Below, piece by piece: positions 8,589 through 38,406 of a stretch of DNA of 64,000 nt. The stretch is from an uncultured archaeon (GTDB lineage: Archaea; Asgardarchaeota; Lokiarchaeia; Sigyniarchaeales; SOKP01). Below the pieces are notes generated by a model. It was not told the origin of the DNA. It worked only from the letters and a program-made list of their open reading frames with translations, and made no database searches. The stretch is taken from positions 584,242-648,241 of the forward strand of contig CAZALK010000001.1 of assembly GCA_964486045.1 (NCBI GenBank). Reading direction: 5' to 3'. Each line of letters starts with the position of its first letter. Positions within the stretch are counted from its first letter, which is position 1. A program made the translations under genes and the position numbers.

Positions 8589-11500
8589 TTAATTATTAAA
8601 TGATTTCTCCTGAGATCTATCTTTAAACATTAAATCAGGGTAAATTTTTTCAAATTTTTCTGTAAATGATTTATGGTTCATCCAAATTTTATCTTTCCCA
8701 TTCCATTGTAAATTTTTTAAAGGGTTATATCTCTTCATAAAATCTAAATTACCGAATACGGATTTAATTAAATTTTTTCCATCATTTAAATCATTCAGAA
8801 TTAAATAATGTTTAATTTCTAAATATTGAAACAGTAAATTAAATACTGATATAAATTCACTAATCTCACATTTAGGAAAATATAACTTAATCATTAATCC
8901 TTCCTCAAATTTTATCTCTTGAGGAAATCCATAAATATAAAACTCTCCTTTAATTTCATGGATAAATCCAGCATTGAAGAAACTGAATATTTTAAAAAGA
9001 ATAGACTTTTTCCCTGCTTTTATATTTGGTAAAAAGATATAAACCTTTTTTTGGAATCCTAAATTCTTAAATCTAATATACGGAAATATTAGATTTTTTT
9101 TTAGCAGATTTAAAATCCGAGTTTTCATTGAATGTTTATTTGATCCAATAAATGATTTTAAGTCTACGGAACGCCAATTATATATGTGAACTAAGTCGTT
9201 AAATTCTGCCGAACTTGGTTCAAAGCGATTAGAATCTAGTATATCACTACTATTGAATGTCTTTATCCCTTGAATTGGAACGTCATAATCTGGATTAAGA
9301 AGAATATTTTGCATATAGATTTTGAATTTATCTGCATCATAATTCCAACCATCAAAACTTAAATTATAATTAATGTGGAAGATTTGATGAATTTTTTTAA
9401 CTGAAAAAGCCATATATTCTCGGATAATTTTCTTTGTTCTGACTAGCCAATTGAAATATTTCATATTTGGGTTTCTATGTGGCATTAAAAATTTGATAAG
9501 GAGAGAATTGGAATTATCGATGCATGTTGGATATTTAATTTTTTGAAAAGTATTCAGGAAAAGAAGCCTAAAATCTATCTCATCAATATCAGTCGGAAAA
9601 AAATATAGATAAAATTGTTCAAGCCCAAAATTTTGAAAAGCGGGAGTAATTCTGATAGATTTAATGAAATTTTTGAAGAAATATTCAGCTTTTAGTTTTT
9701 TTAACTTTTCTTCATTTAGTAGGTTATTTTTTAATGTTTTATTTAACTTTACTAGTTTATTTAGATTTTCCAATGAGATATCAGTATTTTCTAATGAATC
9801 GTGCATCTTTACAGCTGATATTAGATTTGTTAATGTTTTTTGTCGTGTCGACCACATTTTCTTAGGAGTATGACTCCTTTTCTCTAACTGTGTTCTGAAT
9901 GGTTTATCAAAAATTTTCTGTATAGATAGAAAGAGTTGCCCATAGAGAGCTTTAGTATAAAAAAATTGTTTCTTTTGAAAATCATAAAAGTGTTTCCTTG
10001 AAAGCACTGGAGAAAAGCCATTCCATAGATAGGATTCCCCATAAATAAGATCATCTTTAAAATTATTAATTAATATTGAAAATAATTGATCTTTTTCTTT
10101 TTTAGTTAAATAAGGACATGAGAATTCTATGTGAAGTAGAGATTCACTACTGACTAAATCTTTCGATATATTTATTATCGTTCTTGGGAAATATTTCTTT
10201 AGATCATCAATTTTAATTCTATTTTCTTGGCTATCTTTTATTAGTAATTGCAAAAAGTCGTTAACAAACATTTTAGTTACAACAGTATTCATTAAGTTTG
10301 GTTGAATGAGGGGAGGATTATTATTGAGAAATTTAGTCAATATCCCTTCAATTTCATTGTTAGTTATTTTGTATAGTTTAAATTTCTCATAAATCTCCTT
10401 TAACTTCGCTCGTTTAGTTTTGTAGAGTATTCCAACTAAATCCCTATTGCTTACAAGCTTTTTCACCCCATCTAAATCAAATAATTTCAATGAAAAGCAA
10501 GATTCGAATAGCTTATAAAAACTTCTATATTCCTCTAATTTTCTCTGGTAAAGTTTCCTCGATTCGAAATAAGCAGGGATTATCTCCTTATATATGATCT
10601 TTTTTATATAATGGTTTTTAAAAATTAGATTATCTTCAATAGATTGGGAAAAAATTTGAACTTCAATTAATTCTCGGAATTGAATTATATTTCTTATATC
10701 AGGATTACTCTCAAGGAGTTCCTTTACTGCACTTAAAATGACTAAACATTCTTTTAATAAAGAGTGAATAAAGAAAAACCCAAATTTCTTATTTCTTTCC
10801 AAAAAATATAGAAATTTTTTTTTCAAATCTTCAAAATTATGAAATTCTTCTAAAATAACTCTTAAATCTTTAACCTTTGTACGCTCATTTATGATAATAT
10901 TAAGTAAGTCAGACTTTATTATATTTAACGTGTCATTTCTTCGTTCAAATCCAAGCCCGCTTACAGAAAAGAACCTTATTCTATCAATAATTAAAAAATC
11001 GAGAAGTGAAAGTTCTGTTTTATAGTACTCTAACCCGTAATTTATTTTAAAGTCTATTTCATATTTTTCGCGATAATGACGGTGATTTGGATCTATCACT
11101 CGATGATTTTTTGAATACTCCCGAAAATAATTCAAATTAAGAAAATTTTCGCTTTTATTAAGTAATAAACAACGATGAGTTAGTACATAACCATAATCTT
11201 TTAATTTTTTAATAAATCTAAGAAAATCATTGAGATAAATTTTTGGGATTACGATATATCCTGAAAGATCTATCGCAAAACATTTATTTAAGATTTTAAG
11301 AGAGGCAAAAAACGGAAAAAGTTTTATTACTTTTAAGACTTTTCCTTTATCTAATATCGGATTAAATCTTAAAAATACACTGATCAAACAAACGTTTATC
11401 ACATTCCAATTCAACTGATAAGAAGGAGCAATATAACTATAACTGCTAATCCAATTCATGTTATTATTAAATTTATATAAACTCAATGGTGTATCTAACT

Positions 11501-27676: not shown

Positions 27677-28111
27677 TTATTGAGAAATCAGACATATATC
27701 GCTAAATTCTTCAGGGTTCTTAATAAGATTATTATATAATTCATGGATCTTCTCAGTAGTTATGTTTAAAAGTTGATGATTGAATGGCCAAACACCAACT
27801 ATTATATCGCCTAATTTTTTAACGTTACCGATTAAATATCCTCTTTTTTCTCCATTTGATGTATAGAGGATTACTAAATAATAATTGAAGTTAAATTTTG
27901 TCTCAGCATTACCCACAACTATAACTTCTTCAATATTTTGAAAAAAAACTATCTTCTTATTTTTTGCACTTAAATTTTTTAATTCCAAAATCAAATTTGC
28001 AGGAATTGTTATGGGATTTTCTACGTTTAAATCTTTAAAACTTAAAGTGAGATTTCTATTCTCAAATTGCTCGATTGCTTTAAATATGACTTTATAAATT
28101 ATAGAATCCAT
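27677..28111 (-). CDS. hypothetical protein
   Basis: 144-aa ORF, no recognised motif. Confidence 0.6.
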   Translation of the reverse strand: MDSIIYKVIFKAIEQFENRNLTLSFKDLNVENPITIPANLILELKNLSAKNKKIVFFQNIEEVIVVGNAETKFNFNYYLVILYTSNGEKRGYLIGNVKKLGDIIVGVWPFNHQLLNITTEKIHELYNNLIKNPEEFSDICLISQ

Positions 28112-28206
28112 ACAAATTGTTAAAATAGATATTTTTTAAATTCTTAATAACTAATCGTTTAATACTTTTGCCAAAAATAAATGCTTGTAATAGTTTAAGA
28201 TAATAT

Positions 28207-28527
28207 TTACTTCTGCTGGATAAGTATATTTTCTTCAGGAAACCCTAAATCGATTAGCAGTTTTTTTATCTTAAATCGATGATCTCCTTGAAGCTCAACT
28301 TCATTATCTCTTACAGTTCCACCAGAGGCGCATTTCTTTTTTGCTTTTGTCAAAATGTTTTTCAAATTTACATCAAAGCTTCCGACAAAAGTAATTACTG
28401 TAACAACACGCCCCCATTTACGCCTATCGTTTGAGATTATTATTTGTTGTTCATCAGCGCTTAAACTATCACAAATACACAGCTCTTTTGGAAAACTACA
28501 TAACGGACATATGTCGTCGTCTTTAAT
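28207..28527 (-). CDS. sui1: translation initiation factor aIF1/SUI1, apparent AUU start
   Basis: CPLCSFPKELCIC, RRKWGRVVTVI, KKKCASGGTV, VELQGDHR, LGF; absent from the ORF track because no ATG/GTG/TTG precedes the zinc motif before in-frame TAA 28534-28536. Confidence 0.92.
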   Translation of the reverse strand: MKDDDICPLCSFPKELCICDSLSADEQQIIISNDRRKWGRVVTVITFVGSFDVNLKNILTKAKKKCASGGTVRDNEVELQGDHRFKIKKLLIDLGFPEENILIQQK

Positions 28528-28754
28528 ACTCTCTTATCACAACCTTCGTTATTCAAAATATATTTATTATTAATTAAAAGGTACTAAGCAATAATAGAAT
28601 AAAATCTTATAAAAATCTTTTTCATTTTAGAAAATAACTCTCTTCTTATTCACCCTATTTAAAAGAAAGCGTAATCAAAAAAGTATATAAAGTTAAATTT
28701 TTATTATTTATAAATAAGTGTGTTCTTTTTGTTTGGAAATTTAGGTGGTTTACG

Positions 28755-29291
28755 ATAGGACAGAGTTCATGGATATTTAAAGTTATAGTGGCTGGTGCGG
28801 GGGGAGTGGGAAAAACAGCAATGATAACACGTTACTGCTCCGGAAAATTCGAAGAAGGTTATAAAATGACAATTGGAGCGGGATTTCACACCAAATCTGA
28901 AGTTCTTGATACAGGAGAAGCCGTTAAAATGCAGTTATGGGATTTTGCTGGTGAAAAGCGGTTTCGTGAACTCTTACCGGATTATTGTAAGGGGGCGAGT
29001 GGTGCTTTTATCTGTTTTGATATTACTGATTATGATACTTTCAGAGAAATTCAGGGGTGGCTTAAAATCATCCGTCAAAAAGCTGGCTTCGTTCCTATAA
29101 TCCTAATGGGTATGAAATGGGACCTCCAAGATCATGAAGTAGATTTTGAAATTGCGAATAATTATGCTCTACAGGCAAAATGTAATCAGTGTGTATTCTG
29201 TTCTTCAAAAGGGGATATAAACATAAATGAATCATTTCAAGCTATGGGAAAATGGTTGATTTACTTCGCAACTCAAACCGATAATAAATAA
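28755..29291 (+). CDS. Rab/Ras-like small GTPase, apparent AUA start
   Basis: IFKVIVAGAGGVGKT, TIG, QLWDFAG, MKWD, CSSK; the beta-1 strand lies upstream of the GTG at 28788. Confidence 0.88.
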   Translation: MGQSSWIFKVIVAGAGGVGKTAMITRYCSGKFEEGYKMTIGAGFHTKSEVLDTGEAVKMQLWDFAGEKRFRELLPDYCKGASGAFICFDITDYDTFREIQGWLKIIRQKAGFVPIILMGMKWDLQDHEVDFEIANNYALQAKCNQCVFCSSKGDININESFQAMGKWLIYFATQTDNK

Positions 29292-29394
29292 AACGAAAAA
29301 TAGTCTAAATTCCTAATTTAAATTAACCTTAATAGAGAAAAAGCTAAATATTATATTAAATAACATAATATATTAAAAAAAAAATAGCAATAAA

Positions 29395-29499
29395 GCCTCC
29401 GTAGCTCAGCTAGGTAGAGCACTCGGCTGTTAACCGAGCGGTCGCATGTTCGATTTCATTGTTCAGTCTCTGGACAAGACGAGTTCCATGCCGGGGGCG
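29395..29499 (+). tRNA. tRNA-Asn(GTT) with T-loop intron (29455-29485, position 59/60)
   Basis: GCCTCCG/CGGGGGC acceptor, CTCGG-CTGTTAA-CCGAG anticodon arm, BHB TTCG/CGAG. Confidence 0.92.
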
Positions 29500-29576
29500 C
29501 AATTTTCTCACTTACTTTTTAGCTTTCTTACTCAAAATAATAGATACATATAATTTTTAAAGTTATAACCGATTCC

Positions 29577-32500
29577 TCATTGATTATCTTTAGGAACCAG
29601 ATCTGGGTAAATCGGTTCAAATTTTGAAGTAAATACCTTTGGATTTTCCCAACGCTTTTGTTTTTTATTCCACTCGAGATTTTTCAAGGGGTTGTAGGAC
29701 TTCAGAAAGTCTAGTCCTCCATAAATAGATTTAACCAAATTACTACCATCAACTAAGTCGTTTAGAATAATGTAATGTTCAACCTCTAAATACTCGAACA
29801 GCAAATCAAATAATCTTTCAAATTCACTAATTTCACATTTTGGAAACTTAATTTTAATCATAAGCCCCGTCGGGAATTGTATTTGTTGTTTAAACCCATA
29901 AATGAAATACTCTCCCTTGATTTCATAAATAGTTGCCACATTAAAAAAGCTGAAAACTTTTACGACAGTGTCGATTGATTCTTTTTTCATATTAGGCACA
30001 ATTATGTAAACGATGTTGTGAAGGTCTAAATTCTTTAGAGAGAGATAAGGGAATATTAAGTTCTTTTTAAGCAGGCTTGTGATATGATTTATAGTTTTCA
30101 CTTTTTTTGTAGCTAAAAATGACTTTATATCAATTGATTGGGTGTCATAAATTTGGGATAACGATTCAAATTCAGGAGATTCTGGATCTAAGTACGATGA
30201 TATTGATTTTTTTCCTATTTCAAACTCTCTTATCACTGAATTCTTTACAATATATTTTGAATTGAATAGTACATTTTGCATATGCATTTTAAATCTATCT
30301 TTATCATAAATCCAACCTTCTTGGCTAAGATTATTGTTAAAGTGAAGAATTTCATAAACTTTATTTATAAAAAAACCACAGTATTCTCGGATTATCTTTT
30401 TTGACCTTGCTAACCAGTGTAGATACTTCAGGTTAGGTGATCCATAAGGCATAATGTATTTTATGAAAAGTGAGTTTGATGTATCTATTGATACGGGATA
30501 TTTAATCTTTTGAAACGTATTTAAGAAAAGAAGCTTGAAATCAAGTTCATTCATATTTGTCGGGTAAAGATAAATGAAATATTGTTCTAGTCCAAAATTT
30601 TCAAAAGAAGGAATGAATTTTATAGAATTAATATAATTGTCGAAAAAATATTCTTCCTTGGCTTTTTTAAATTCAACATTATTTATCAGATATCCTTTGA
30701 GGTTTAAATGAAACCTTAATAACTTTTTTAAATGTATGTCGTTAAAATCGTTATTTTCTCTCATGACACGAGTGTTAACTCTGTTCACTAAAGTTAATAA
30801 ACTTTTTTCTTGTGACCAAAATTTTTCCTGATATTCATTCTTCTCTTCTCTCCGAGATTCTAATTCATTTCCAAATATACTTCTTACATATAGAAAATAT
30901 TGTCGGTAGAGATCTTTTGTATAAAAAAAAGTCTTGCTATCAAAATCATAAAAATTTTTGCTAGATAATGCTTTAATCGTACCACTCCATAAGAATGATT
31001 TCCCGTAAAGTAAATTTTCTTTAAATAAATTATGGAGAATTGAGAATAGGTGTCTTTTTTCTTTTTTGGTGAGATAAGGAGTTGAAATTTCTACATAGAT
31101 TAAGCTATTATTAGATATTAAATCTTTTGTATAATTCACGAGAATTCTAGGGAAAATTTTTTTGATTTGAGTTATATCTCTTTGAGTTTTTTGAGAATTA
31201 GCTAAAAATAGTTGAAGAAAATCATTTACATATTCTTTTACCATAACTGTATTAATTAATAGCGGTTTGATAACCGGCGGTTCATTATTCAATAATTTAT
31301 CCAATATATTATTGATTTCTTGACTAGTTATTTGATAAAGTTTGATTTTTTCATAGTATTTTTCTAATTTTTCTTCTTTTTTAGAATAAATTTTACCTAC
31401 TAAATTCTTATCTGTTATTATCTTTTTAATATCTTTTAGGTTAAATACTTTCAAATTATAGAAGACGTTCATTAAATCATAGAAATTCTTGAATTTCTCG
31501 ACTTCTTCTCTATATTTTTCTTTAGATTCAAAATAAATTGAAAAAATATCATTTAAAACAGTATCTATAAGATTTGTATTTTTTATTCTGATATTTTCTT
31601 CAACTAGATTCAACTGATTTAGTTTTTTGAAGGTTTTATGAAAATCAGTTAATGTTTTAATTTTTGGATTTTTTGCGAGTACCCTATCCATTAAATTCAA
31701 GATTGCTAAATACTCATCTAATATTTCTTTTATAGAGAAAAATCCAAAATCCACATTTTCTTTAAGAAATTGAAAAAATTGTAATTGTAGATTTTCTGAA
31801 ACATAGAATTTATTTAAAATTTTTTTTAGATTTGTTAAAAGTGTTTGTTGGGTAATAACTTCATCAACCAAATCTGATTTTATGGTAGCCAGAGTCTCAG
31901 TGTTTCTTTCAAATCCAAATCCTGTTACAGAAAACATTCTAATTCTATCAAGTATTAAAAAATCGAGAAGAGAAAGCTCAAAACTAGAAGTAATATTACC
32001 AAAATCCATTTGAAATTCTATTTCATATCTTTTATTGTAAGTTTTATGATTAGGATTTATTATTCGATATTTTTGCGCATATTCCCTAAAATAATTTAAA
32101 TTTAGTAAATGATTTTGAGATAAACGAAGTAAACAATAACTCTTAATTATAAAATTAGAACTTTTCATTTTTCTGATAAACTCAGTAAAATCTTCTAAAT
32201 AAGGTCTAGGGAGGATAACATAACCACTTAGTTCACAATTAAAACTATTATATGAAATTTTCGGAGAAATGAAGAAGGGAGACTCTTCAATTACCTTAAA
32301 TATATCAGTTCTTCTTAATTTAGGATTAAAACTTAAGAATATGGCAATAACACATACATCAAGCGTATTCCAATTTAATTGATAAGAAGGAGAAATATAA
32401 CTATATCTTCTTATCCAGTTAATATTGCTAAATAATTTTCTTAAACTTAATTTAGTATCCATCCCCCCAATTTCTTTAAGGTTTTGAAAAAATTTTCTAT

Positions 32501-33239
32501 AACTTAGGAAATCTTTATACTTCTTTACTTTATAGAAAATATATATTATACATCTAATTGATTCTACGATCTCATCTTTATTCATAGATCTAGATAAATA
32601 ATTAGTATACTCGTTGAAGAACACATCATGTATATCTTCCTCATTAAATGTTTTCATTCTATCACTAATTAAAGAAATGTTTCTTCTTAGATATTTAAAG
32701 AAAAATTGTGTAGGATTATTGGGTATTTGTTGATGATAGAGTTTGAAAAATCTTTCTAAACGGTCAAATGCAAATAGACGATTTACTCCTTTGGTTAAAA
32801 GGTCTGTCTGTTCAAGATTTTCTCTGATAATTGACTTCCATTCATTTAAATGTTTAGATTTATTGAGATCACTTAAAATTATTTGATTGATGATAATTTG
32901 TACAAATTCGTAGCTTTTTAATTCTTTTGGAAGAAATAAATTATAAATTTCTCTCAAAATAATAAACGGGAGAAATTTTATATAACTTTCAAAGAATTCT
33001 ATTACTACAACATTACTATCGATATATCGATTAACTCCAATACTAAAAATATCCTTACCCTTTAAGGAATTTGTATCAAGATTTTTATTAAGAATAAATT
33101 TGATTTTTTCATGAAATGGATTTATATCCAAAAATAATTGTATCTCTTTGAAAAAATCCTGAACAATCACTTCTAAATCTTTAATAAGTTCTTCTGCTGA
33201 TAGATTTTCTAAAAATTTTAAATCAGGAAGTTTTAACAT
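29577..33239 (-). CDS. large (1220 aa) soluble protein, putative peptide-responsive regulator; paralogue B
   Basis: Full-length paralogue of 8589-12248 (FIILREIYN, SPSYQLNW, LSLLDFLILDRIR, LLFLNTFQKIKYP, FPKCEISEF, YNPLKNLEW). Function inferred. Confidence 0.75.
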   Translation of the reverse strand: MLKLPDLKFLENLSAEELIKDLEVIVQDFFKEIQLFLDINPFHEKIKFILNKNLDTNSLKGKDIFSIGVNRYIDSNVVVIEFFESYIKFLPFIILREIYNLFLPKELKSYEFVQIIINQIILSDLNKSKHLNEWKSIIRENLEQTDLLTKGVNRLFAFDRLERFFKLYHQQIPNNPTQFFFKYLRRNISLISDRMKTFNEEDIHDVFFNEYTNYLSRSMNKDEIVESIRCIIYIFYKVKKYKDFLSYRKFFQNLKEIGGMDTKLSLRKLFSNINWIRRYSYISPSYQLNWNTLDVCVIAIFLSFNPKLRRTDIFKVIEESPFFISPKISYNSFNCELSGYVILPRPYLEDFTEFIRKMKSSNFIIKSYCLLRLSQNHLLNLNYFREYAQKYRIINPNHKTYNKRYEIEFQMDFGNITSSFELSLLDFLILDRIRMFSVTGFGFERNTETLATIKSDLVDEVITQQTLLTNLKKILNKFYVSENLQLQFFQFLKENVDFGFFSIKEILDEYLAILNLMDRVLAKNPKIKTLTDFHKTFKKLNQLNLVEENIRIKNTNLIDTVLNDIFSIYFESKEKYREEVEKFKNFYDLMNVFYNLKVFNLKDIKKIITDKNLVGKIYSKKEEKLEKYYEKIKLYQITSQEINNILDKLLNNEPPVIKPLLINTVMVKEYVNDFLQLFLANSQKTQRDITQIKKIFPRILVNYTKDLISNNSLIYVEISTPYLTKKEKRHLFSILHNLFKENLLYGKSFLWSGTIKALSSKNFYDFDSKTFFYTKDLYRQYFLYVRSIFGNELESRREEKNEYQEKFWSQEKSLLTLVNRVNTRVMRENNDFNDIHLKKLLRFHLNLKGYLINNVEFKKAKEEYFFDNYINSIKFIPSFENFGLEQYFIYLYPTNMNELDFKLLFLNTFQKIKYPVSIDTSNSLFIKYIMPYGSPNLKYLHWLARSKKIIREYCGFFINKVYEILHFNNNLSQEGWIYDKDRFKMHMQNVLFNSKYIVKNSVIREFEIGKKSISSYLDPESPEFESLSQIYDTQSIDIKSFLATKKVKTINHITSLLKKNLIFPYLSLKNLDLHNIVYIIVPNMKKESIDTVVKVFSFFNVATIYEIKGEYFIYGFKQQIQFPTGLMIKIKFPKCEISEFERLFDLLFEYLEVEHYIILNDLVDGSNLVKSIYGGLDFLKSYNPLKNLEWNKKQKRWENPKVFTSKFEPIYPDLVPKDNQ

Positions 33240-33391
33240 TTGTATTCTTTGTTACAAGTCGTTTTAATTAAAATTAAAGAATTACATATTTATTTTTTTA
33301 CAATTTAATAATTTTTCTTGCTTTTTATAGTGGTTTAAATAAATTCTCACTAAAAATATGTTGAAAATTTACCTATTTAATGTGTATTTAC

Positions 33392-33505
33392 ATGAAATTA
33401 CAAAATAAAATAAAAGTGTCACTAGCTTTCTTGACTGCGATTTCCATTGGCCTTAAAATGTTAGTTGCTGGCTTAGCTGTTAATGCTGGTGAGGGCGGGC
33501 CTTAA
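33392..33505 (+). CDS. 37-aa peptide, GxP-tail family, copy 1
   Basis: MKLQNKIKVSLAFLTAISIGLKMLVAGLAVNAGEGGP*. Confidence 0.85.
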   Translation: MKLQNKIKVSLAFLTAISIGLKMLVAGLAVNAGEGGP

Positions 33506-33675
33506 TTATTTCTAAAAATAATAAAGCTAGCGAATATTTTTCTCTTTTTTTCTCTAAATATACAAGACATTTTTTTAATATTAATAAAATCCTCATAGGA
33601 CTACCTTATTTTTAAATTTTTCGGAGTTTATATAGGTTTCTTGCAATACAATTACACCTAATCAAGGTGAATTTA

Positions 33676-33789
33676 TTGAAATTACGAACAAAACTAAGTT
33701 TAATGATGGCTTTTTTAACAGCAATTTCACTCTTTCTTAAAATGTCCATTTTTGGGTTAGCAGTTAATGGAAATGGTGGCGGACCCTAG
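33676..33789 (+). CDS. 37-aa peptide, GxP-tail family, copy 2
   Basis: TTG start after AGGTGA RBS; MKLRTKLSLMMAFLTAISLFLKMSIFGLAVNGNGGGP*; TTTATATA box ~50 nt upstream. Confidence 0.85.
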   Translation: MKLRTKLSLMMAFLTAISLFLKMSIFGLAVNGNGGGP

Positions 33790-33966
33790 ATTACTTTGAG
33801 ATTATTAATTTAAAAAAGCTACATTATATTTCTCTTTATTTTTATATCCTTTTCATTAATTTTCTTGGAATTTATATATTTAAGATTGGAAAAAATCTTA
33901 AGAAAATATAGTCTTCTTGTTGTATTTTCATGACAATTCGTAATAAACTTTTCTTGGTGTATTTAG

Positions 33967-34080
33967 ATGAAAATTCGTACCAAAATTTCAATATTATTAG
34001 CTTTATTAACTGCTATTTCAGCGTGGCTTCAAAAGTCAATCATCGGATTTGGATTCTCTGGTGGCGAAGGAACCCCATAA
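33967..34080 (+). CDS. 37-aa peptide, GxP-tail family, copy 3
   Basis: GGTG RBS; MKIRTKISILLALLTAISAWLQKSIIGFGFSGGEGTP*. Confidence 0.85.
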   Translation: MKIRTKISILLALLTAISAWLQKSIIGFGFSGGEGTP

Positions 34081-34409
34081 ATCAATTTTTTTCAAGATTC
34101 TCCTTTATTAAAAATCTATATATAGATAAATTCCTTAGATTTTTAATATTTTAGATTCTGTTAAATTGCTTCAGTAAATATTTTATTAGACATACCTCTG
34201 TTGAATCATATTCTCCACGAATTTAAAGTGGTCTAAGTTTCAATGGGTGGGAAGCGAAATGGAATTTCTGAAAATTCTTTAGACATTTGTGTCAAATCAC
34301 TCCCACGATTTACCTTTAGAACCCCTCTACTCCTATTATATTTTTTGAGGAAAACATTTATAAGGGAAACTCCCTCCTCTTTTTAATTATAAAAAAAAAG
34401 TGACATTAT

Positions 34410-34601
34410 ATGAAAAACAACTTGATCAAATATAAATGTCCAAGATGTAATGGAGAAAGCACTGTCGACTATGGTGAGACGTTTCAATGTGAAAAATGTC
34501 TATTAGAGTTTTACAAGGAAGATATGGAAACTTACGAAAAGAAAGATATACTAGCAATCTCAGAATTGAGTGCCATTATGAAAGTTTTTGCGAAAAACTA
34601 A
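34410..34601 (+). CDS. small zinc-ribbon protein
   Basis: CPRC...CEKC, 63 aa. Confidence 0.65.
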   Translation: MKNNLIKYKCPRCNGESTVDYGETFQCEKCLLEFYKEDMETYEKKDILAISELSAIMKVFAKN

Positions 34602-34709
34602 TTTTCCTAATTTTTTTTTTTTCATTTTATTTATTTAATTAAGGAATCAGTTAAGTTTTATTAAGATTTAAAAAAATAGGTTATTGGTTCTAAAACAGTT
34701 GATTTAATT

Positions 34710-34844
34710 TGCTCCTGCCGGGATTCGAACCCGGTTAATGATACAAAACGATAGGATCTGTATTGTCACCAGGGTGAAAGCCTAGCATGCCAAGCCCTTT
34801 CTTTTACATAGGGTGAAAGATTGGCCGGACTACACTACAGGAGC
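34710..34844 (-). tRNA. tRNA-Glu(TTC) with two non-canonical introns (34791-34820 in D arm ~21/22; 34735-34764 at 48/49)
   Basis: GCTCCTG/CAGGAGC acceptor, CTAGG-CTTTCAC-CCTGG anticodon arm; BHB-like helices GGCC/GGCT and GGTG/CATT. Confidence 0.9.
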
Positions 34845-34986
34845 ATGGTACTTTTATTTTATCAAGCTTTTTTTATAAATCGTTTTTAGAACTCTTAAAC
34901 TATTATTAATAGTAGAGTCTGCAATCATTAAAATTTTTCTTTTCTTTAGAAATAAAATGTTGGAAATGTATTAATAAAAGAAAATA

Positions 34987-35071
34987 TGCGGGAAGGGAGA
35001 TTTGAACTCCCGAACTCCTATGAGAATGGATTCTAAGTCCACCACCTTTGACCAGACTTGGCGATTCCCGC
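34987..35071 (-). tRNA. tRNA-Leu(TAG), intronless
   Basis: GCGGGAA/TTCCCGC acceptor, GTGGA-CTTAGAA-TCCAT, long variable arm. Confidence 0.95.
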
Positions 35072-35242
35072 GATTTAAGAACAAATTAAAAATCTATTAT
35101 TTAGATAAGAGGAAATAAAATTAAAAAATTTATGATGATGAAATTCAAATTATATGCGATTGAAATAAATGATAAAACTTTCTAATATTATATAAGAAAA
35201 GATAATTATTATAGCTTAAAGCAAAAAAAATAGGTTTTTTTA

Positions 35243-36241
35243 ATGAGTGTAAGAGATTCTTTAATAAAACATTTAACGTCTATATTACGTGCATCAGAAG
35301 GTACAGTTTTGGTGCTTTTATGTGATCAAAATGGTCTTTCTATCGCAAAGATTGGTAGAAAAAGCGAAATTGATTTAGATCCCAATCAAATTACAAGTCT
35401 CGCAGCAGCAGCTTTTACAGCGAGTGAAGAAAATTGGGAAGATCTGAATATTAAAGAGCAAGTTATTTCATTTTCATATTTTGAGAAGGTGTGTTTAATA
35501 ACAATTAGAATTAATGAAACACTCTTGACTATTGTTCATGATTACCATAAAGAATGGCCATTAGATGCGGATAATCTAGCATCATCAATGTACTATCTGA
35601 AACAAAAATTAGGAGAGTTTTTTGGAACTGGGGATGAAACTGAGGCAGAAATCGAGCAATTTTGTGATAAAGTTCGAAGTGCAATTTATCTTTTCGGAAT
35701 GGGTTCGGAAGTTCCCCTTATTTCTTATAGTCATGAAGATATTGAACTTACTAATTTACTACCGGCAATAAGCACTATTTTAGATTCTCTGCAAAACCCC
35801 ATTTTTATTAGATACGGGTTAGTAGGTGAATCAGGGCTAACATTGGATGCTAGGGAGATAAGTGGTCAAAATTTACCGATATCCATTGAGGCATTTTCTG
35901 CAAATGCGCATGTTGCTTTTCAAAAAATGAAAGAAGAATCTGAGGGGAGCTCAATAGGGAATTTATTATGTTATGTCGCTATTTCTGGAAGTGATGCCGA
36001 AAATTTTTATGGACTAATCTCATGCCCTTCTGGAAAATTAAAATACTCAAATATTGAAAACACATCAAATACTGAAGATATTTCTTTTATTGGATTATTT
36101 TCCCTTACATATGGAGGTATTCCTATTATCTGTGAATCAAGGAATATTATTTATTCAATTATGCAACTATTAGGTAGTGAACAGACTACTGAAAACTTTA
36201 TAAAATCTGTTAATGTTCTTACTAGTTTTAAATATGAGTGA
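35243..36241 (+). CDS. tandem Roadblock/LC7-like domain protein
   Basis: VLLCDQNGLSIA...ITSLAAAAF and YGLVGESGLTL...AFSANAHVAF repeats. Confidence 0.7.
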   Translation: MSVRDSLIKHLTSILRASEGTVLVLLCDQNGLSIAKIGRKSEIDLDPNQITSLAAAAFTASEENWEDLNIKEQVISFSYFEKVCLITIRINETLLTIVHDYHKEWPLDADNLASSMYYLKQKLGEFFGTGDETEAEIEQFCDKVRSAIYLFGMGSEVPLISYSHEDIELTNLLPAISTILDSLQNPIFIRYGLVGESGLTLDAREISGQNLPISIEAFSANAHVAFQKMKEESEGSSIGNLLCYVAISGSDAENFYGLISCPSGKLKYSNIENTSNTEDISFIGLFSLTYGGIPIICESRNIIYSIMQLLGSEQTTENFIKSVNVLTSFKYE

Positions 36242-36307
36242 TTAATTAAGAAAAAATTTATGCCTTGAAAATTAATATCGAGAAATTATGACTCCTAAAT
36301 CTTAATT

Positions 36308-36769
36308 ATGAATAGATCCTCTCCAAGCTTGTCGATACCGAAATTGTACTGTCTTCATTATAATGAGTGTGATCCAAAAAAATGTACTGCAACCAAATTA
36401 AGTAAGTTAAATCTTCTGAAAAAAATAAATAGAGTCAAGGGAAATTTAAGAAATGCTATTATTTTAAACCCTTTTGCGCGAAAGATTATCAGCATAAATG
36501 ACAGAGAATTTGTTTTAAAAGATGGTCTTATAGTTATTGATTGTTCTTGGAAAAAAATAATTAAATTGACAGACTTAGAATCAAGTAATGATCGTAAATT
36601 ACCCTCCTTAATAGCCGCAAACTCTACCAATTATGGAAAATGGGAAAAGTTAAGTTCTGCAGAGGCCTTAGCAGCAGCACTTTTTATCACAAATTTTATT
36701 GATTATGGGGATTTAATCCTTTCGAAATTCTCCTGGGGAACTCAATTCAGGGAGTTAAATAATATTTAA
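36308..36769 (+). CDS. tsr3: 16S rRNA aminocarboxypropyltransferase Tsr3 (DUF367)
   Basis: CDPKKCT, IDCSW, LIAAN.TNYG...LSSAEALAAAL, FSWG..F..LN. Confidence 0.93.
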   Translation: MNRSSPSLSIPKLYCLHYNECDPKKCTATKLSKLNLLKKINRVKGNLRNAIILNPFARKIISINDREFVLKDGLIVIDCSWKKIIKLTDLESSNDRKLPSLIAANSTNYGKWEKLSSAEALAAALFITNFIDYGDLILSKFSWGTQFRELNNI

Positions 36770-36801
36770 AAAAATTAGAAAAAATAAAAATAGAATATAG
36801 T

Positions 36802-38406
36802 TTAATCCATTCCGCCTTTAGACAATGTGGATGCTGCTATTACATCATCGATTTTAATAATCATAGAGGCAACTTCAGTAGCAGATTGAATAGCTTGGGT
36901 TAAAATTGATAATGGTTCAAGAACCCCGAGCTCAATCATGTTGTCGGGTTTTCCTGTATCAATATTTATTCCATTAGATTTCCCATCTTCAATTTCATGT
37001 TTTGATCTTAATTCAACTATTAAATCAATAGGATTATAACCAGCATTTTCAACCAGAGTTTTGGGAATTATTTCTAGAGCGTTAGCATAGATTTCAATTG
37101 CTAATTGTTCTCTACCTCCAATTGATCTGGCATAAGCTCTTAATCGTTTTGCTAATTCGATTTCGGACGCACCGCCACCAGGCAAGATATATGGAAGTTC
37201 TATTGCGGCTTTAACAACAGATAAAGCATCATGTAGCATTCTTTCCGCTTCATCTACCACGTGTTCAATACCGGCTCTAATTAATACGCTCACTGCTTTT
37301 GGATCTGCACATTCTGATACAAAAATCATATTGTCATCTCCTATCTTTTTTTCCTCGACTTTTCCCGCACTTCCTATATCATTTGGAGTTACTTCAAATA
37401 TGTTATTAATAATTTTAGCGTGAGTTGCTCTTGCTAACTTTTCCATATCAGATCTTTTTACTCTTCTAACAGTTATTATATTTTCCTTTGCAAGGAAGTT
37501 TTGTGCCTTATCATCAACACCTTTCTGGCAAAAAACTACATTAGCGCCAATTTCTTTGAGTTTTACTACCCGCTTTTTTAACATATTAGATTCTTCTTCA
37601 AGGAATTTACTGATTTGGTCAGGAGTTTGCACTCTTATTTCAGCATCAAACTCAGTTTTTTCTACCTCTAGAGAAGAATTAATTAAGGCTACTTTTGCGT
37701 CTTTTATCGATTTTGGCATCATAGGATGGACGATTTCCTTATCAACTATAATTCCATCAATAATACTGGTATCCAAAAGGCTTTTTCCTTCTTTTTTAAT
37801 AACTTGGATCTGATCAAGATCAATTATAATATTTTCTCCGCGTTTTTCTTTGATTTGGCTTACTGCTTTGACTGCGATATCTGCAATATGGCTTTTTACA
37901 CCGGATATTAATTTACTATTCATAGAAGTTTCTGCAACTTTCAATAATGTCTCTTTATCGTTAGAATCTATCTTTATTGCTAGATCTTTTAAAATTTCTT
38001 TACTTTTTAACAAGGCTTTTCTATACCCTCGAAAAATTATAGTTGGGTGCACCGATTGTTCCATTAACTCTTGCGCTAGATTCAATAATTCTCCCGAAAT
38101 AATAACGCTAGTTGTTGTCCCATCCCCAACTTTCTCATCTTGTGTTTTAGCAACTTCAACTATCATTTTAGCTGCGGGATGCTCAACATCAATGGTGTCT
38201 AATATTGTAGCTCCATCATTTGTAATTGTTACATCTCCTAATGAGTCGACTAACATTTTATCCATACCTTTTGGTCCAAGCGTGGTTCTAACAGATTCAG
38301 CAACTGCTTTTGCAGCAGCAATATTGTTTTTTTGAGCGTCTCTTCCTTGTTTTCTATCTGTCCCTTCTTTTAATATCAGAATTGGGACGCCAGATAATTG
38401 TGCCAT
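36802..38406 (-). CDS. ths: thermosome (group II chaperonin) subunit
   Basis: [34 protein letters not shown]. Confidence 0.97.

Follow-up and report, generated by a model that had tools for sequence, protein, structure and literature searches.

Do three tiny open reading frames (ORFs) beside a very large gene in a Lokiarchaeial genome encode real peptides, and what, if anything, do they have to do with their neighbour? The question was raised by a window of 64,000 nucleotides (positions 584,242 to 648,241 of contig CAZALK010000001.1, from an uncultured archaeon of the Sigyniarchaeales), for which an initial annotation had noted three tandem plus-strand ORFs of 37 amino acids (aa), divergent from a gene for a 1220-aa protein, and had proposed a module of secreted peptides and an adjacent receptor. 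Coordinates and a genome-wide profile search confirmed the arrangement: the ORFs each comprise 37 codons and a stop, their starts are spaced by 287 and 288 bp, and the array is divergent to the ORF of the 1220-aa protein (here called the large protein), the nearest gene at a distance of 153 bp. Comparisons described below indicate that the three ORFs are real genes under purifying selection, linked to two clades of large proteins, and we tentatively propose that they encode exported or membrane micro-proteins which are transcribed under control of the adjacent Lrp-like protein, a reading to which we give somewhat less than an even chance. The features of the locus are as follows.

33392-33505, plus strand: micro-peptide gene 1, ATG start, 37 aa, subfamily A, tail LAVNAGEGGP, with an orthologue at the equal array position in genome G109
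33679-33789, plus strand: micro-peptide gene 2, TTG start, 37 aa, subfamily A, with AGGTG about 11 nt 5′ of the TTG and TTTATATA at 33627-33634
33967-34080, plus strand: micro-peptide gene 3, ATG start, 37 aa, subfamily A, with GGTG about 10 nt 5′ of the ATG
33334-33341, plus strand: TATA-like box TTTAAATA of gene 1, about 57 nt before the ATG, a position common to all subfamilies in alignments of the units
33871-33878 and 33903-33910, plus strand: TATA-like boxes of gene 3
33535-33556, plus strand: oligo-T terminator-like run of gene 1, with the gene 2 counterpart at 33825-33846
33523-33530, plus strand: box AAAGCTAG in the 3′ untranslated region (UTR) of gene 1, the complement of codons 11-13 (CTAGCTTT), with the gene 2 counterpart at 33814-33821
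29577-33239, minus strand: 1220-aa large protein, predicted by fold models to consist of fused Lrp/AsnC-ACT/RAM units, divergent and 153 bp from gene 1

A hidden Markov model (HMM) of the three copies was searched against the six-frame translation of the whole genome (5.18 Mb, 31% G+C). It matched the copies themselves with E-values of 4e-23 to 6e-24 and retrieved further copies in the genome; therefore, their similarity is far above chance. Few copies had been annotated as proteins before, and peptide 1 (P0116) is one of them. Copy 2 lacks an ATG; its start is either the TTG at 33679 or a GTG four codons further 5′. Alignment with copies from other genomes revealed a unit of approximately 290 bp with the same anatomy in all subfamilies: a TFB-recognition-element (BRE)/TATA-like box (GGAGTTTAAATA or TTTATATA) about 55 nt 5′ of the start, a Shine-Dalgarno-like GGTG or GATG about 10 nt 5′ of the start, and an oligo-T run 40-60 nt 3′ of the stop. 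Since every unit has its own BRE/TATA-like box, Shine-Dalgarno-like GGTG and oligo-T run, the micro-peptide genes are best described as separate monocistronic transcription units with predicted transcripts of about 200 nt. An Rfam scan of the region matched tRNA-Leu (34987-35071) as the sole family. Copies 2 and 3 had been credited with a ribosome-binding site and a box, and both indeed carry a GGTG-type Shine-Dalgarno-like sequence and boxes; however, in copy 3 some 90 nt separate the TTTATATA box from the ATG, and the usual position of the family (about -57) is taken by the weaker AAAATATA. Copy 1 has a box too, GTTTAAATA at about -57.

To define the family, a profile of eight members was used in six-frame searches of 161 genomes of the class and of 239 genomes of other Asgard families. 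The peptides were found in 43 of the 161 genomes, that is in 41 of 134 genomes of one Lokiarchaeial family (f1) and in 1 of 14 of its sister family (f2), and in none of the 239 genomes from other Asgard families. Roughly 80 matches were obtained across all genomes, and the family is confined almost wholly to f1. The peptides fall into three subfamilies: A, the type of the window (MK[LI]R.K.S..LALLTAIS.., ending G[EG]G.P), B (..LFKVYRVLLFVLIGIASFLPM.SIVLG..G.GGGP), of which two intact copies lie elsewhere in the same genome (C15:30370 and C5:194071), and C (..KKV.VALAILLT.SYGLSMAAAGVS[IV]PGC....P). Members of all three begin with a basic, Lys-rich stretch of 5-7 residues. It is followed by a mostly hydrophobic segment (21-24 residues) in which small and polar positions are conserved, by a conserved Gly roughly 10 residues before the C-terminus, and by a Gly-rich tail of 8-11 residues that ends in Pro. 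The stop codon directly follows this invariant Pro in all intact copies (36 of the 38 copies read). TTG is the commonest start codon among the 38 (15 TTG, 13 ATG) and predominates in A and B. The family is almost absent from annotation: only 12 members are called among 5.8 billion database proteins, all labelled hypothetical, Pfam and NCBIfam yielded nothing for the peptides, the ESM-Atlas features of one peptide led to unnamed clusters only (≤0.79), and literature searches returned no description of the family or of its pairing with the large protein.

Several lines of evidence argue for selection on the encoded peptides. Pairs of subfamily C had dN/dS ratios of 0.02-0.3 and pairs of subfamily A ratios of 0.2-0.6, the latter with saturated dS. 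In genome G037, three copies encode one identical 40-mer with 16-20 synonymous differences. Genome G109 contains an orthologous three-gene array, in the same order, beside a 70%-identical large gene, so the triplication is older than that species split and every copy has been retained since. Together, the ratios, the synonymous-only differences and the orthologous array bear out the view that these are selected genes. The position-wise entropy was low over the hydrophobic segment, chiefly in B and C, and the tail, which had been described as variable, shows no hypervariability: conservation in A and B is highest in the final five residues, and variability in B is focused on the two residues after the conserved Gly. 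At array position 1, the 10-residue tails of the G109 and window (G000) orthologues are identical and 7 of the 26 upstream residues differ. Likewise, a Lys at position 22 or 23 is no family feature, since members elsewhere have Q, Y, N, G, L, H or P there.

Are the peptide genes tied to the gene of the large protein? For 31 of the 80 matches, a listed large gene is present on the contig with its 5′ end 126-801 bp away, and one more 5′ adjacency was found by direct reading of a locus, giving at least 32 of 80. A further match is 2.2 kb from a large-gene 5′ end and two more are 160 bp 3′ of a large gene. A conservative chance expectation is about 0.2 matches (Poisson P ~2e-53, a value inflated by the relatedness of the genomes), and the enrichment beside homologues of the large protein that the initial annotation had proposed as a check was thus strongly evident. 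In total, 22 large-gene loci in 17 genomes and five genera have a 5′-adjacent peptide gene, mostly divergent and in some cases upstream on the same strand; in a sixth genus the peptide gene is downstream of the large gene. The adjacency recurs in different orientations and at different genomic sites, as in G008 versus G000, and was also seen in independent metagenome contigs, where a B-type gene is located 578 bp from, and divergent to, a gene for a 1218-aa homologue. In a tree of 37 copies of the large protein, computed from their N-terminal 330 residues, one fully supported monophyletic clade had B-type peptides linked in 6 of 6 copies, and all copies linked to A-type peptides fell into a second clade (10 of 17). 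Peptide subfamily hence follows large-protein clade, and the linkage to two large-protein clades appears to be ancient and clade-specific, but not obligatory.

A block comprising genes for a 144-aa protein, a SUI1-like protein, a Ras-type GTPase, tRNA-Leu, a roadblock-like 332-aa protein, a 153-aa protein and the thermosome (window 27677-38406) is syntenic across the genus (compared with loci L022 in G014, L023 in G008 and L058 in G093). The large gene and the peptide genes occupy the gap between GTPase and tRNA in the window and a position beyond the thermosome in G008; G014 has the peptide gene alone. Such shifting positions within a syntenic block speak for repeated insertion, loss or relocation.

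What kind of protein is the partner? The large protein was found in 117 of the 134 f1 genomes, usually as a single copy, and was absent from the 26 remaining genomes of the class; it is labelled just hypothetical in metagenome-assembled genomes of Promethearchaeota. Scans against Pfam and NCBIfam with E-values up to 0.1-1 matched no family, including the HTH_AsnC-type and AsnC_trans_reg models, and a phmmer search against PDB sequences gave nothing meaningful. The sole lead at the sequence level was an ESM-Atlas feature match of 0.81 to an archaeal HTH_AsnC cluster, which is under the trust level. AlphaFold2 models were computed on 35-sequence alignments with the protein in two halves and had a mean local confidence (pLDDT) of 77.6 for residues 1-640 and of 83.6 for residues 600-1220 (predicted TM-score, pTM, 0.81). 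Structural matches of the models were as follows.

Residues 14-219: weak match to zincin domains of the M1/LTA4-hydrolase type (Z 7.1-7.7)
Residues 219-385: whole Lrp/AsnC regulators (AsnC, LrpC, PF0864, NMB0573), 132-146 residues aligned, middling Z of 7.1-7.7, Foldseek probability 0.99 and E 0.04
Residues 294-373: ferredoxin fold of the ACT/RAM type (Z ~8)
Residues 424-640: long paired helices in the model
Residues 669-755: ACT-like (Z ~6)
Residues 834-1208: 266 residues aligned to NirDL, in which two Lrp/AsnC-like units are fused (Z 10.6, Foldseek E 9.5e-7)

The HExxH motif is missing from residues 14-219, and no conserved His/Glu metal site was seen there in the family alignment. The domain order of the Lrp/AsnC family, a winged helix-turn-helix (HTH) and then a RAM domain of the order beta-alpha-beta-beta-alpha-beta, is present by fold at residues 219-385 and in the NirDL-like part (834-1208). 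What the modelled protein has in common with the Lrp/AsnC "feast/famine" regulators and the NirDL/AhbAB sirohaem decarboxylases is the HTH + RAM-like unit, of which it has at least three by fold; the double unit of NirDL can be superposed on its last 375 residues. It departs from these regulators in size, roughly eightfold that of a normal Lrp, and in additional parts, namely a zincin-like domain at the N-terminus, a coiled-coil region of 200 residues and a further ACT-like domain; moreover, it is without sequence similarity at the Pfam level and is restricted to one archaeal family. By predicted fold the large protein is thus regulator-like, as had been suspected, and the models describe a fused multi-Lrp architecture not described before. 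Upstream of the core single-copy orthologues (L063-L076) is a gene for an MFS-like transporter of 412-465 aa, and downstream one for a protein of 475-506 aa that resembles ADP-forming acyl-CoA synthetases; these flanking genes hint that the ancestral role of the large protein may have been in metabolic or transport regulation.

From these data we propose the following model. The positively charged N-terminus of the micro-protein would stay inside the cell, the hydrophobic segment would enter the membrane via Sec/YidC as a signal anchor or, less likely, be cut after the conserved Gly, and the Pro-capped tail would be displayed outside. The micro-protein may then act on the membrane or on a membrane partner. 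The large protein, in the cytoplasm, is modelled as a ligand-responsive DNA-binding regulator that would control the micro-genes, and probably itself too, from the shared back-to-back promoter region of 130-600 bp. Lrp/AsnC regulators commonly act on divergently transcribed neighbours. A feedback of the peptide on the regulator is not needed in this model. Because the hydrophobic run is 21-24 residues long and specific small and polar residues within it are conserved, we mildly favour a membrane helix that stays in place (N-in/C-out) over cleavage after the conserved Gly; on the other hand, the K, P or G that occurs after the first 13-15 hydrophobic residues and the conserved Gly that follows are compatible with a cleaved signal peptide of n-, h- and c-regions. 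The peptides resemble bacterial membrane micro-proteins such as MgrB, AcrZ, KdpF and MgtS in size, in the single hydrophobic helix, in the very short soluble ends and in having been overlooked by annotation, but there is no sequence relationship to them and the genes described here are in multi-copy arrays.

A number of observations weigh against control by the large protein. Peptide genes are linked to none of the 13 copies in the core clades of the large-protein tree, and most of the large genes sampled are without one nearby. For 20 large genes with no HMM match, 2.5 kb on either side was screened by a pattern filter, then by a relaxed profile, and no hidden peptide gene emerged. In about 75 genomes the large gene is present and the profile search detected no peptide gene. 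Conversely, genes of the C type mostly stand alone (no common neighbour was found for them beyond local synteny), a tandem B-type pair is located between a glycosyltransferase gene and a decarboxylase/FtsZ cluster without a large gene, and G037, a member of f2, has four peptide genes and no large gene. Since stand-alone peptide genes are many, control by the large protein cannot be general. Moreover, the HTH units were recognised by fold and not by Pfam, and the best structural match, NirDL, is an enzyme; we therefore infer, rather than observe, that the large protein binds DNA.

The next most likely reading, which we nevertheless consider unlikely, is a peptide-signal/receptor module. Here, pre-peptides exported via Sec would be cut after the conserved Gly, and released tails of 8-14 residues would build up outside the cell, be re-imported and bind the adjacent large protein at its RAM/ACT pockets or at the degenerate zincin-like N-domain, thereby switching the regulatory output; paralogous pairs would be separate channels. 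The tight ancient linkage and the match of peptide subfamily to large-protein clade are in line with this, as are the n-h-c-like layout, in which all subfamilies have I, V or A at -3 and Gly at -1 of the candidate cleavage site, the identity of the position-1 tails of G000 and G109 despite changes upstream, the variability of B centred on the two residues after the Gly, and, in the partner, ACT/RAM folds of the ligand-binding type together with an N-domain that weakly resembles M1 peptidases (Z 7.1-7.7) but has no HExxH. Against it stand the facultative pairing in both directions, with G037 as the case of peptide genes without a large gene, a hydrophobic span that exceeds typical cleaved h-regions, the five terminal residues, which in A and B are the most conserved and not the most variable ones, and the lack of an importer tied to the locus. 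The known ligands of RAM and ACT domains are amino acids and small metabolites, not peptides. Its full form, cell-cell signalling by ribosomal peptides in Asgard archaea, in which secreted Pro-capped 8-14-mers are sensed by a giant fused-Lrp/AsnC receptor with a dead-peptidase peptide-binding domain and paralogous pairs serve as separate channels, is a shade less likely still.

The locus can be compared with the known pairs of the RRNPP type (Rap-Phr, PlcR-PapR, NprR-NprX, PrgX-PrgQ and phage AimR-AimP). Here as there, a peptide gene of about 40 codons, basic and then hydrophobic, adjoins the gene of a large cytoplasmic regulator-like protein (in our case at 22 loci, within about 800 bp of the 5′ end and in some clades only), and there are paralogous pairs with diverged peptides. 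As for export and processing, the n-h-c-like layout and the conserved Gly would be compatible with the RRNPP route, but the 21-24-residue run fits a signal anchor equally well. RRNPP receptors are built of tetratricopeptide (TPR) repeats and have an HTH or phosphatase domain at the N-terminus, whereas the partner here has predicted Lrp/AsnC-ACT/RAM folds; no TPR or other Pfam match was found in the large protein, the helical region 424-640 not having been searched alone. Further differences are the facultative pairing, the transmembrane length of the hydrophobic segment and the C-terminal residues, which are conserved and are not where most of the variation lies. The likeness to RRNPP modules is thus one of gene layout alone, and the locus probably does not belong to that family. 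What stands of the originally proposed peptide/receptor module is the reality of the genes, their linkage, the clade match and the regulator-like fold; the pairing turned out to be facultative, not obligatory.

Somewhat less probable than signalling, and in our view rather unlikely, is that the 37-mers are membrane-active toxins, similar to those of type I toxin-antitoxin systems or to bacteriocins and holins, which would form oligomers and make the membrane permeable; expression would be restrained by the structure of the mRNA or by an antisense RNA, and the large protein would be an extra switch or a mere neighbour. The tandem units of about 287 bp, each with a hydrophobic peptide of about 37 aa, argue for this: the long direct repeats of E. 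coli Ldr/Rdl and the Ibs/Sib arrays are built in a like manner. The weak TTG starts predominating in A and B, conserved polar residues (Thr, Ser) within the helix, and variable copy number with decayed copies also fit. In addition, the A-type genes (loci L028-L048) have a conserved box, AAGCUA(A/G), 17-30 nt after the stop, which is the complement of codons 11-13 (UUAGCUU). The pairing of the two is the sole stem in the RNAalifold consensus of 14 A-type units, with 93.8% of cells paired, three pairs with double changes (5 double-change cells versus 1.0 in shuffles), compensatory changes of the kinds CUAGC/GCUAG and UCAUUUUAA/UUAAAAUGA, and perfect complements of 8-11 nt in 8 units. The box could be part of a long-range mRNA stem or an antisense promoter element. 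Yet this stem within one transcript, formed by ORF and 3′ UTR, is the only RNA pairing found, its covariation is modest, and it is weak (7 bp over a loop of about 115 nt, consensus energy -2 kcal/mol). Compared with the Ldr/Rdl, Ibs/Sib and Hok/Sok loci, the units share the short direct repeats with one peptide of about 35 aa each, the variable copy number, the decayed copies and possibly a long-range mRNA pairing that involves the coding region, but they differ in the archaeal host, in the linkage to a protein gene rather than to an RNA antitoxin and in the strictly conserved Gly-rich, Pro-ended tail, for which known type I toxins offer no parallel. It would also be unusual for selfish toxin loci to be under strong purifying selection and to keep a stable synteny from genus to genus.

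It is improbable, in our estimate, that the linkage is incidental, i.e. that independent genes of small membrane proteins were co-duplicated and co-inherited with the large gene. Stand-alone copies are indeed common, G014 has one peptide gene and no large gene at the syntenic Ras-GTPase/roadblock/thermosome locus, and related genomes are non-independent samples. However, the adjacency survives changes of orientation (divergent, upstream on the same strand, downstream) and of site (G008 versus G000), and it occurs in two deep large-protein clades with a different peptide subfamily each, in six genera. Precursors of ribosomally synthesised and post-translationally modified peptides (RiPPs), with the N-terminal part as leader, the Gly-rich tail as core peptide and the large protein as modifying enzyme or scaffold, would account for tandem precursor-like genes with partly variable C-termini beside a large uncharacterised protein whose C-terminal half matches best an enzyme, NirDL, but are very improbable, as no domain of a recognised RiPP enzyme, protease or transporter turned up when the large protein and five neighbours were scanned with Pfam (only Ras, plus sub-threshold matches to MAPKK1_Int, which is roadblock-like, and to a zinc ribbon), the "leader" is a hydrophobic membrane-type segment, and A and B tails are mostly without the Cys, Ser or Thr patterns of known classes.

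By inspection and background knowledge, three more candidates were rejected: a class III (pilin-type) signal peptide, for which there is no G/A cleavage motif after the basic N-terminus; a lipoprotein, as Cys occurs in subfamily C only and I/V-P-G-C is a poor lipobox; and a eukaryote-like subunit of the OST4 type, to whose pattern the peptides have no similarity.

Elsewhere in the window, and next to the array, the following features were identified.

8589-12248, minus strand: 1219-aa paralogue of the large protein, 49% identical to the 1220-aa protein
12674-12787, minus strand: decayed A-type copy, in which ACG stands in place of the start codon and the hydrophobic core contains two Pro; the 1219-aa paralogue follows 429 bp downstream on the same strand
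13040-13275, minus strand: N-terminal remnant of another large-protein copy (tblastn, 50% identity over 82 aa) with an in-frame stop
13689-13766, minus strand: peptide-gene remnant of 25 codons upstream of the large-protein remnant
34410-34601, plus strand: gene for a 63-aa zinc-ribbon protein (CxxC...CxxC), downstream of the array

The window had been thought to contain five peptides; three are intact, and the other two are the decayed copies at 12674-12787 and 13689-13766. The minus strand from 12600 to 14200 is most readily read as a collapsed tandem duplication of a module in which the peptide gene is followed by the large gene. A short ORF tail, ...KPFDIEKEL..., is found at both 13968-14165 and about 13040-12980. 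Decay was also seen outside the window: a third large paralogue (G000 C1:661015-664652) appears broken, with two tblastn segments that abut with a one-base overlap at about 663366 and an in-frame TAG, and decayed members were noted at L039/L086 (G092:C114) and L078 (G087:C35:140121-140228), one of them an A-type copy without a stop that reads on to 79 aa and another without a start that ends ...EEGL. Homologues of the zinc-ribbon protein are encoded 0.4-0.6 kb from A-type peptide genes in G109, G117 and G022, in the last as a 154-aa form with hydrophobic N-terminal segments, and in this genome another precedes the third large paralogue by about 2.5 kb; the zinc-ribbon gene is thus a possible third component of the locus.

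In sum, small exported peptide genes coupled to a neighbouring regulator-like gene are a known kind of arrangement; what appears to be new here are peptides without known relatives and a very large fusion partner of the Lrp/AsnC type. Micro-proteins are almost invisible to archaeal annotation, and the analysis defines a conserved, selected micro-protein family with clear promoters and terminators and a specific, ancient genetic partner. Should the peptides signal back to the large protein, this would, as far as we know, be the first ribosomal-peptide signalling system described in archaea. If the preferred reading of a regulator and an exported effector is true, the pair would offer a concrete way into the lineage-specific biology of membrane or surface in those prokaryotes that are most closely related to eukaryotes.

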